From Methanosarcinales archaeon (GTDB lineage: Archaea; Halobacteriota; Syntropharchaeia; Alkanophagales; Methanospirareceae), in NCBI GenBank assembly GCA_025464345.1, contig JAODGP010000023.1, positions 1 to 30,428 on the forward strand: a DNA stretch of 30,428 bases. The letters run 5' to 3'. Position 1 is the stretch's first letter, and each line of letters begins with the position of its first letter. The notes beneath the pieces were generated by a model. That model saw nothing but the letters and a program-made list of their open reading frames with translations, was not told the DNA's origin and ran no database searches. The position numbers and the translations under genes were made by a program. Shown one piece after another: positions 17,082 through 20,000 of this stretch.

Positions 17082-20000
17082 ATGAGGACGAAGAGAATAA
17101 AGGCGATAAAATTCGGACTGTTATCACCGAAGGAGATAAGGAAGATGAGTGCTGCGAAGGTGATAACAGCGGACACTTACGGTGAGGATGGCTTTCCAAT
17201 AGAGACGGGACTGGTGAATCAGCGGCTGGGTGTTATTGATCCCGGGCTGAGGTGTAAGACCTGTGGGGGTCGTATGGGTGAATGTCCGGGGCATTTTGGT
17301 CATATCGAGCTCGCTGCACCGGTCATACATGTGGGATATGCAAAACTGATCCATAAGATACTGAGTGCCACGTGTCGCAGGTGTGGGAGGTTATTACTGA
17401 GCGAGCCGGCGAAGCAGGAGTATCTGGCGAAGATAGAAGAGCAGAAGGAGAAGCAGGCAGATATAAACGAGGTGGTGAAACAGGTCTTCAAGGAGGCGTC
17501 GAAGAACGAGGTGTGCATGTACTGCGGCGATTATTTCAGTATAGATAGCGAGGGTCTGGAGGAGGACCTGGATAAGAGCAGTGTGAGTAGCGAGTTGCGT
17601 GAAAGGATAGAGGACAGAGGCTTCTCTGTATCCAAGAATGCGATACTGCATAGGGAGATAGATCCAGAGCGGCTGTTCCGCTGGGGTGACGTGCCGGGCA
17701 GGGATAATAAGCAGCTGATAGAGTTTCTTGTCCGTGATTTTGAACTCACGTGGGTGAAGAAAGCGAAGATCAGTAAGAAGGATGATAATACGGTGGTGAT
17801 CTCAGCGGGTGCTAAAACGTTGGAGCTTTCGCTCAGTTCGAGGAGAGATTGTGTGAGACTGAATTTTGAGGGTGGGCGTAGTTACGAGTTACCGGTGAAG
17901 AAAGAGGGTATGGCTCTCTTCGTTTACAGCTACCGGTGGGTGATAACTGACACTGATAAGGTTTACATATTGAAGAGGGGCTGGGACAAACTGCTTATAT
18001 ACTGCGGAGAGCGACAGAAGCGGATAAAATACGAGAAACCGACCACCTACAAGGAGATAGAAGAGGATGGGCGAGAGCGGAGATTGATGCCAACGGATGT
18101 GCGTGAGCGGCTTGAGCGGATACCGGATGAAGATGTTGAGGTTCTCGGAATGGATCCCGCGAATGCGAGACCCGAATGGATGGTTCTAACAGTCCTGCCA
18201 GTGCCTCCGGTTACCGCGCGACCTTCGATCACACTGGAGAGCGGGCAGCGGAGTGAGGATGACCTGACGCATAAGCTGGTGGATATAATCAGGATAAACC
18301 AGCGATTTATGGAGAACAGGGATGCAGGTGCGCCACAACTGATAATAGAGGACCTCTGGGAGCTTCTTCAGTACCATGTCAGCACATACTTTGATAATGA
18401 GATACAGGGTATACCACCAGCCAGGCACCGGAGTGGTAGACCTCTGAAGACGATGGCACAGCGGTTGAAAGGCAAGGAGGGGCGATTCAGGGGTTCGCTA
18501 TCCGGTAAACGTGTGAATTTCTCGGCACGAACTGTGATATCACCTGACCCGGACATAGGTATAGACGAGGTGGGTGTGCCGGTAGATGTGGCGAAAGAAC
18601 TGACGATCACCGTTAATGTGACGGAGCGGAATTTAGAAGCGATGAGGGAGCTTGTGCGTAATGGCAAAAACCATCCAGGTGCGAACTACGCGATAAGACC
18701 GGACGGCAGGAGATTGAAATTGATGGAGAGCAATTACGAGACTCTCGCTTCGGAATTGGACATAGGATGGAAGGTGGAACGGCACCTGATTGATGGTGAC
18801 ATCGTTCTCTTTAACAGGCAGCCATCTCTGCACAGATTGAGCATAATGGCACATTATGTAAGGGTGATGCCGGGCAGGACTTTCAGGTTGAATCCGGCAG
18901 TGTGCCCACCGTATAATGCCGATTATGACGGTGATGAGATGAACCTGCACGTCTTGCAGACAGAGGAGGCGCGTGCGGAGGCGAAGATTCTGATGGAGGT
19001 ACAGCGTAATATCATATCACCCAGATTCGGCAGACCGATAGTCGGTGGTATACACGATTACATCACAGGTCTGTTCATGCTCACGTGGGGCGATAAGAGA
19101 TTCAGCAAGGAAGAGGCACTGGACATATTGAGGAACATAGACTTTGATGAGCTGGGGGAGCCCGCGGGAATCGGTGAGGATGGACAGCCTTACTGGACCG
19201 GGAAGCAGATATTCAGCGTGATTTTGCCTGAGGGGTTGAATCAGGAGTTCCGTGGCAAGGTGTGCAGGAAATGCACGGAGCAGGGCTTGATATGCAGGAA
19301 GGAAGACTGCCCCAATGAAGCGTACGTGCATATAAAGAATGGCAGGCTGATAAGTGGTGTGATAGATGAAATGGCAATAGGCTCCTTTAAAGGTATGATA
19401 ATAGACCGGATATATCGTAAACTGGGCGATAGTACCGCCAAGGAGTTTATAAGCAAAGCTTCTCGACTCGCAATCAATTATATACTCCTTGCTGGGTTCA
19501 GTTTCGGGATAAGTGATGAGGATATACCGGAGGAGGGTAAGGAGCAGATACGGGACGAGGTAATAAAGGAAGCGGAGGAGAAGGTGAAGCGGCTGATAAT
19601 GGCATACGAAGCGGAGGAACTGGAGGCGTTACCGGGCAGGACGCTGGAGGAGACGCTGGAACTGCTGATAATGCAGGAACTCGGTCGTGCGAGGGACGAA
19701 GCGGGCGAAATAGCGGGCAGATATCTGGGCATAGAGAACCCAGGTGTGCTCATGGCGAGATCGGGCGCTCGTGGCTCCATACTCAATTTAACGCAGATGG
19801 CAGCCTGTGTGGGTCAGCAATCAGTGAGAGGCGAGCGGATAATGAGGGGCTATCATGGCAGGACATTACCGCATTTCAAACCCGGTGATCGGAGTGCAGA
19901 TGCTCGTGGCTTCGTTCGGTCTTCATTCAAGGACGGGCTATCTCCAACTGAATATTTCTTCCATGCCATGGGCGGGCGAGAAGCGCTGGTGGACACCGCA

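Follow-up and report, generated by a model that had tools for sequence, protein, structure and literature searches.

How did rpoA', the gene for the N-terminal large subunit of archaeal RNA polymerase, come to carry in its zinc-binding region an insert that seems itself to be interrupted by a related insert? The gene lies in a stretch of 30,428 nucleotides from a Methanosarcinales archaeon (contig JAODGP010000023.1 of assembly GCA_025464345.1), which was analysed as a whole and is referred to below as the window. An initial annotation, made from the letters alone, had proposed that two mobile protein-coding modules belonging to one family were inserted here in succession. We conclude, with a probability of roughly 80%, that the insert consists of two protein-coding miniature transposable elements with inverted repeats (MITEs) of a single superfamily, one nested in the other, which share their ends with an element of the IS66 family. 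The relevant features of the window, all on the forward strand, are as follows.

17082..20210, +, rpoA' (RpoA'/Rpo1N, N-terminal large subunit of archaeal RNA polymerase), 1042 amino acids, Pfam RNA_pol_Rpb1_1 to _5
17523..17530, +, left target-site duplication copy TGCGGCGA, 8 bp, encoding the last zinc-ligand Cys-Gly-Asp
17531..17668, +, outer element, 5' part (outer module residues Y..E), positions 3-48 of the outer hidden Markov model (HMM)
17669..17927, +, inner element (86-amino-acid module RLFRW..ALFVY), inner HMM positions 2-87, E value 4.5e-32
17928..18002, +, outer element, 3' part, outer HMM positions 48-72, joined to the 5' part in outer-only alleles
18003..18010, +, right target-site duplication copy TGCGGAGA, identical to 17523-17530 at 7 of 8 bases and abutting the element end

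Alleles, relatives and predicted fold of the insert

The rpoA' gene is present in a single copy in the window's own genome (1.17 Mb in 116 contigs), the closest relatives of which are other deposits named 'Methanosarcinales archaeon' from Arctic Mid-Ocean Ridge samples. Translation of 17532-18002 returned exactly the 157 residues given in the initial annotation, located between the last zinc-finger cysteine and a conserved CGE. When archaeal Rpo1N chains of solved structure, among them 3qqc, a Pyrococcus clamp construct, were aligned to RpoA', they covered residues 4-149 and 307-420, and residues 150-306 had no counterpart in any of the chains aligned. Since the 'HCG' of these chains matches both flanks of the insert (residues 147-149 and 307-309), the insert is located in the clamp-head zinc site, directly after the fourth cysteine, with a few host residues duplicated, one copy on each side.

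An RpoA' alignment of 28 related genomes revealed three states of this insertion site (site B). In most genera, the site is empty ('..VCMY|CGERQ..') and the sequence TGYGGNGA is present once. Four genomes from three genera (L023, L024, L025 and L028) carry one uninterrupted module of about 70 residues, which corresponds to the two outer segments of the initial annotation joined together; such outer-only relatives had been suggested there as something to look for. Finally, in the window's genus (g1, with seven genomes that include the window's own) and in genus g7, the outer module is split by an inner module of 86 to 88 residues. The finding of empty, outer-only and outer-plus-inner alleles at one site bears out the proposed nesting, and alignment with the outer-only alleles places the internal boundaries, to the residue, where they had been drawn from the window alone (17669/17670 and 17927/17928).

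Both parts of the insert have many independent homologues in HMM searches. A HMMER scan of 1.84 billion cluster representatives (cutoff, E ≤ 0.001) yielded 1,125 representative proteins matching the insert, nearly all of them through the inner part and with up to 10 matching stretches per protein. Within the family to which the window's genome belongs, the inner module was found in 36 of 61 genomes (1 to 14 copies each) and the outer module in 59 of 61 (1 to 9 copies each), so that both motif families named in the initial annotation do exist; in the phylum as a whole, the inner module has a patchy distribution, with 20 of 251 genomes from five families carrying it. When 29 outer modules were compared with 28 inner modules in hhalign, 54 columns were aligned with 93.4% probability (E value, 2.5e-7). 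The two families are therefore homologous, as the proposed profile-profile comparison was meant to establish, and the C-terminal pattern noticed in both segments is real; the inner module looks like an outer module with an extra beta-hairpin of about 23 residues. Neither the insert, its inner part nor the outer-only modules matched a Pfam or NCBIfam family, and an ESM Atlas feature search returned no usable match for the modules.

The modules occur in a wide range of hosts. In the window's own genome, further outer-type copies were detected with the HMMs in AglB (one copy) and in small membrane proteins (two copies), and a search of that genome with the whole 157-residue insert returned the self match only. 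The AglB copy is situated in the C-terminal, extracellular domain and is orthologous in at least six genera, from which it follows that a module is tolerated outside as well as inside the cell. In other hosts, modules split an SF1 helicase AAA_11 domain, a GAF domain, a CBAH domain and a glycosyltransferase; further hosts include STAND and KAP NTPases and Baseplate_J and HNH proteins, and modules were also found at protein termini and as stand-alone open reading frames (ORFs). The inner module was also recognised (root-mean-square deviation, about 1 Angstrom) in AlphaFold DB proteins that bear the names 'TATA-box-binding protein (Modular protein)' and PurP, which suggests that further essential genes have been colonised in other archaea.

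AlphaFold2 predicted the whole insert with a mean predicted local distance difference test score (pLDDT) of 93.5 and a predicted template modelling score of 0.84, with two long strands continuous from the outer into the inner part. The outer module on its own was predicted with a pLDDT of 90.1 and a beta-alpha-alpha-beta4 topology, and the inner module sits in its beta2-beta3 hairpin. An outer module that is found by itself, and for which a fold is predicted in isolation, speaks against the two segments forming one inseparable domain. Fold searches (PDB Foldseek, VIA wide and ESM Atlas) gave weak and inconsistent frataxin-like or KA1-like matches (template modelling score, <0.45; Z score, ≤4). 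Within genus g1, the ratio of nonsynonymous to synonymous substitution rates was 0.07 to 0.14 for the outer module and 0.13 to 0.21 for the inner module, compared to approximately 0.05 to 0.065 for the RpoA' flanks. These low values indicate that the insert is translated and constrained, though the constraint on it is two to three times looser than that on the core of the enzyme. Judging by the sequences, the RpoA' copies are old and under purifying selection.

The four outer-only genomes carry a second outer-type module in RpoA' at another position, site A, which closely follows the first CxxC of that zinc site. In one further genome, L031, site A alone is filled, and in its congener, L011, sites A and B are both empty; within genus g6, site A is filled in G023 and empty in G011. 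The inserted stretch at site A closes with two extra residues, Asp-Ala, for which the canonical element does not account. Separately, the RpoA' catalytic loop (window positions 18915-18935) reads NADYDGD in place of NADFDGD. The site A modules, and the AglB module mentioned above, are located as follows.

L023:2167-2394, site A, RpoA' outer-type module
L024:1021-1239, site A, RpoA' outer-type module
L025:2179-2406, site A, RpoA' outer-type module
L028:1015-1233, site A, RpoA' outer-type module
L031:1273-1491, site A, RpoA' outer-type module
L032:3860-4084 (contig C27 of the window's genome), outer-type module in AglB/STT3 (oligosaccharyltransferase), flanked by CTTCACGG/CTTTATGG

Terminal repeats, target-site duplications and partner elements

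The evidence for mobility comes from the DNA of the modules, of which approximately 55 full copies were extracted. Well-preserved copies of both families are terminated by a 14-nucleotide inverted repeat, GTATWTGTTTAGCT. Inner copies almost always start with (G)TAT TTG TTT AGC TGG and finish with AAG CTA AAC ATA TAC, and in most of them the 5' end (GTATTTGTTTAGCT) matches the reverse complement of the 3' end (GTATATGTTTAGCT) at 13 of 14 positions. Outer copies start with (G)TAT TTG TTT AGC and finish with AAG CTA AAY RTT TAC, sharing the (G)TATTTGTTTAGC 5' end and, at the 3' end, a GCTAAA core; the G preceding and the C following the module unit are conserved. A look at the DNA termini, as recommended in the initial annotation, thus uncovered inverted repeats at the ends of both families, and the protein motifs 'YLFS' and 'KLNIY' are therefore translated terminal inverted repeats. 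For the terminal leucine, 17 of 25 inner copies and 21 of 26 outer copies use CTA, a rare codon (background frequencies, 0.13 and 0.09, respectively), and the 13-mer TATWTGTTTAGCT is overrepresented in two copy-rich genomes (129 occurrences versus 31 for the control in one and 59 versus 25 in the other).

We next defined the element as G + TAT...TAC and compared the 8 nucleotides before it with the 8 nucleotides after it at 33 nonredundant insertion sites. The flanks share a mean of 4.27 of 8 bases, against 2.29 ± 0.22 for a shuffled-pairing null, with none of 10,000 shuffles reaching the observed value, and a register shift of only 1 to 3 bases abolishes the signal. The elements are 262 nucleotides long in the inner family (G + 261) and 205 to 223 in the outer family (G + 204 to 222); with the 8-bp duplication, the added length is 270 or 213 to 231 nucleotides, which is always a multiple of three. 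Moreover, of the six reading frames, the coding frame alone lacks stops in every copy. An insertion will therefore either add a module to the host protein or truncate it, and selection would keep those of the module-adding kind.

The same 14-nucleotide ends bound two other kinds of element. First, there are non-coding MITEs of about 170 nucleotides, which have stops in every frame and which, in the four cases given here, are flanked by perfect 8-bp duplications.

L073:229-397, non-coding MITE
L074:217-385, non-coding MITE
L077:204-377, non-coding MITE
L078:192-393, non-coding MITE

Many contigs of one genome, G072, start 40 to 80 nucleotides inside an element with these ends, implying that this element family fragments assemblies. 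Second, a 1,540-bp insertion sequence (IS) with the same ends contains a single 472-codon ORF with DDE_Tnp_IS66 (PF03050, 8.6e-34) and zf-IS66 (PF13005, 2e-7) domains. Seven full IS copies of 1.53 to 1.59 kb, bounded by the 14-mer GTATTTGTWTAGCT, were found in genera g10, g7, g3 and g1, and the copy in G003, a member of the window's genus, is flanked by a perfect 8-bp duplication, GTAATTTA. Members of the IS66 family make 8-bp target duplications and have terminal repeats that begin with GTAA; those of the IS found here begin with GTAT. In one copy of 1,590 bp (L102:1433-3022), the 8-bp duplication (TCATATCG) is offset by two bases from the 14-nucleotide repeat on each side, and this variant may in fact extend 2 nucleotides further at its ends. 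As for the cognate transposase that the initial annotation had proposed to look for, the IS66-family transposase of this IS was identified, intact or decayed, in 29 of the 61 genomes, which represent 11 of the 14 genera. The modules, then, carry IS66-family terminal inverted repeats and 8-bp duplications, are small, contain no transposase gene and code for the module along their whole length, which makes them in-frame protein-coding MITEs.

Nesting in other proteins and alternative origins

The 150 best representative proteins were surveyed for self-nesting. In many of these, one inner unit harbours another, complete one, and the loops in which the guest sits differ. Three nested cases were analysed at the DNA level, and in each the guest consists of G + 261 nucleotides with intact ends and a duplication matching at 7 of 8 bases. 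Partial tandem duplication as the source of such units within units was rejected, since host and guest are often only about 50% identical and guests have ends and 7/8 duplications of their own. In multi-unit proteins, the nearest relative of a unit was located in the same protein for just 39 of 164 units, which fits serial insertion better than local duplication. The C-terminal 'sensor' regions of two NB-ARC/STAND NTPases (P0003 and P0007) are arrays of four to seven inner modules, some of them nested three levels deep, and such STAND arrays may have been built by transposition. A composite with the very arrangement seen in RpoA', an inner unit in the beta2-beta3 loop of an outer one, was found in the N-terminal region of a secretion ATPase from another genus.

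L103:1484-4000, FlaI/GspE-like secretion ATPase (G013), with outer positions 1-50, a full inner module and the outer C-terminal part

Several observations weigh against the insert in RpoA' being a pair of nested, IS66-related MITEs. To begin with, the element ends in the window are decayed: the outer 5' terminal repeat now reads T-TAT-TTC-AGT, with one codon lost, the inner ends read CGG CTG TTC CGC TGG (5') and GCT CTC TTC GTT TAC (3'), and a target duplication of the inner element's own is not recognisable in the window. The MITE identity of the window's elements consequently rests on homology to better-preserved copies, among them the uninterrupted outer-only orthologues (L023-L028), which still begin with TAT TTG TTT AGC, and the g7 orthologue of the inner element, which retains the 3' end AAG CTA AAC ATA TAC; the ends of these alleles are much better kept than those in the window. 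Furthermore, codon choices are common to the copies along the whole module rather than at the ends alone. These shared interior codons point to common descent at the DNA level, but they also mean that the codon bias of the ends, which we had considered as stand-alone proof of DNA-level constraint, is weakened in that role and does not by itself prove such a constraint. The link between the modules and the IS66 transposase, for its part, rests on shared ends and duplication length, and no such transposase was found in the window's own assembly, which is 90% complete and of a kind in which repeats often go unassembled. Lastly, there is the distribution of site B on the RpoA' core tree: g1 and g7 are the basal branches of the family, and the outer-only clade is nested among genera with an empty site. 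Such a pattern requires either that one old insertion was later lost, precisely, on several occasions or that the same 8-mer was hit twice independently.

Some of these points could be accommodated if the modules were MITE-like but had been moved by another enzyme or by homologous recombination or gene conversion, or if the outer and inner modules had entered RpoA' together, as one composite. A transposase was detected neither in the window's genome nor in several distant genomes that carry modules, the FlaI-like ATPase contains the same composite, and the distribution of site B on the RpoA' tree is not monophyletic. On the other hand, the 8-bp duplication and the repeats beginning with GTA match what is generally known of the IS66 family, the identical 14-mer bounds all seven full IS copies across four genera, and outer-only alleles at exactly the same site argue for two steps rather than one. 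We consider an origin of this kind unlikely. Of the original proposal of two successive insertions, membership of one family is upheld by the profile comparison and mobility by the ends and the duplications; succession is favoured by the outer-only alleles, with joint entry keeping a small chance.

Ordinary domain shuffling, in which an unnamed domain family was spread by recombination or duplication and the terminal motifs are simply the two paired beta-strands that close the fold, would account for modules that are predicted to be well folded and are under purifying selection, for arrays in STAND NTPases that resemble sensor repeats and for the somewhat higher identity between units within proteins (50%) than between proteins (40%). 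However, it leaves unexplained why the module ends are identical at 13 of 14 positions to the terminal repeat of an IS66-family element, why a G before and a C after the unit are conserved along with rare CTA and ATA codons, and why there are register-exact 8-bp duplications, non-coding MITEs with the same ends and precise units inside units; we regard this explanation as quite improbable. Finally, an intein- or intron-like element that is removed from the protein or mRNA, leaving mature RpoA' without the insert, might be suspected, because inteins typically lie, like this insert, in frame and next to a cysteine in essential genes for information processing, but we rejected this on motifs and fold as having next to no likelihood: there is no Hint/intein match or any other Pfam or NCBIfam match, the ends are Tyr...Tyr (Tyr-(Leu)-Phe and Ile-Tyr) instead of Cys/Ser...His-Asn, fold searches with the predicted structure gave nothing Hint-like, the compactness of that structure and the strong purifying selection on amino acids suit a domain that is retained, and the same modules are also present at the termini of proteins and as ORFs of their own.

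Returning to two nested MITEs as the preferred explanation, we propose that an IS66-family transposase cuts and pastes the module elements in trans, making an 8-bp target duplication, and that only in-phase, sense insertions in tolerant surface loops would persist, adding a folded module instead of destroying the gene. In rpoA', the target of the outer element would have been TGYGGNGA, where the clamp-head zinc site has its fourth cysteine, and the inner element would then have landed in the beta2-beta3 loop of the outer module, before g1 and g7 split. The ends of both have since decayed, which would leave the copy fixed; it is probably now a passenger that no longer moves and whose ability to fold is maintained because misfolding would be harmful to the polymerase. 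That the insert has a function in the polymerase clamp is possible but unsupported.

More broadly, we lean towards the view that an IS66-mobilised MITE lineage in archaea of the anaerobic methanotrophic (ANME)/Methanosarcinales type has evolved an in-frame coding interior for a self-folding domain, with which it colonises coding sequence and, inserting again and again beside or within copies of itself, generates multi-domain architectures, such as the STAND arrays. If so, coding sequence itself, including that of RNA polymerase, TATA-box-binding protein and oligosaccharyltransferase, would have been colonised, and a 'hypothetical' module family present in more than 1,000 protein clusters would be explained. 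The whole chain, from an autonomous IS66-family element through non-coding MITEs to two coding MITE families with the same ends, is legible from sequence and would offer a concrete route by which transposition creates domain insertions and repeat arrays in prokaryotic proteins. On the practical side, such inserts inflate and distort phylogenetic marker genes such as that for RpoA', and they are also miscalled as stand-alone genes.

Comparison with known systems

The suggestion that this might be an undescribed domain-spreading system holds insofar as neither these modules nor coding IS66-type MITEs of ANME archaea were described in the literature searched, but the system is not wholly without precedent, given its IS66-type ends and the existence of Rickettsia palindromic elements (RPEs). 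To our knowledge, RPEs are the one well-known case of selfish DNA that owes its survival to its translation, and their means of movement is unclear. RPEs (Ogata et al., Science 2000 and Genome Res 2002; reviewed in PMC10969869) are in-frame, translated selfish DNA in unrelated genes. By our analysis, they are the nearest precedent for the RpoA' modules. Both are short, multi-copy selfish DNA found in frame in unrelated and often essential genes, both come in several related families, and in both cases translation gives the host protein an additional peptide segment that its fold can accommodate. In contrast to RPEs, the archaeal modules have 14-nucleotide terminal inverted repeats, 8-bp duplications and an identifiable autonomous partner of the IS66 family; they are 70 to 87 residues long and predicted to fold independently (pLDDT, 90 or higher), compared to RPE segments of about 45 to 50 residues; and they repeatedly insert into each other, building multi-unit arrays. 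Since they also belong to another domain of life and have an unrelated consensus, the likeness is one of function and not of membership.

With regard to the IS66 family, the archaeal partner IS resembles the single-ORF (ISBst12-like) type in having one ORF (DDE_Tnp_IS66 plus zf-IS66), repeats starting with GTA and 8-bp duplications, and the derivatives of about 170 nucleotides in the same genomes are ordinary non-coding MITEs. The coding derivatives differ in that they share only the 14-nucleotide ends with the IS and have an interior that is an ORF for a folded domain; no IS66-type MITEs with such an interior were described in the literature searched.

Two further systems invite comparison because of the host. 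Lane and Darst (2010) reportedly described lineage-specific domain insertions in the bacterial RNA polymerase beta and beta' subunits, such as E. coli beta' SI3 and the Taq beta' non-conserved domain. Like the RpoA' modules, these are extra surface domains in loops of the largest subunits that are tolerated and conserved within lineages. However, the bacterial insertions are sandwich-barrel hybrid motifs with no known transposon ends, whereas the RpoA' modules lack a convincing solved relative and have a traceable origin in transposition. Inteins, finally, are also in-frame selfish insertions in essential genes and are sometimes nested, but the RpoA' modules contain neither a Hint domain nor splicing motifs and are presumably retained in the mature protein.

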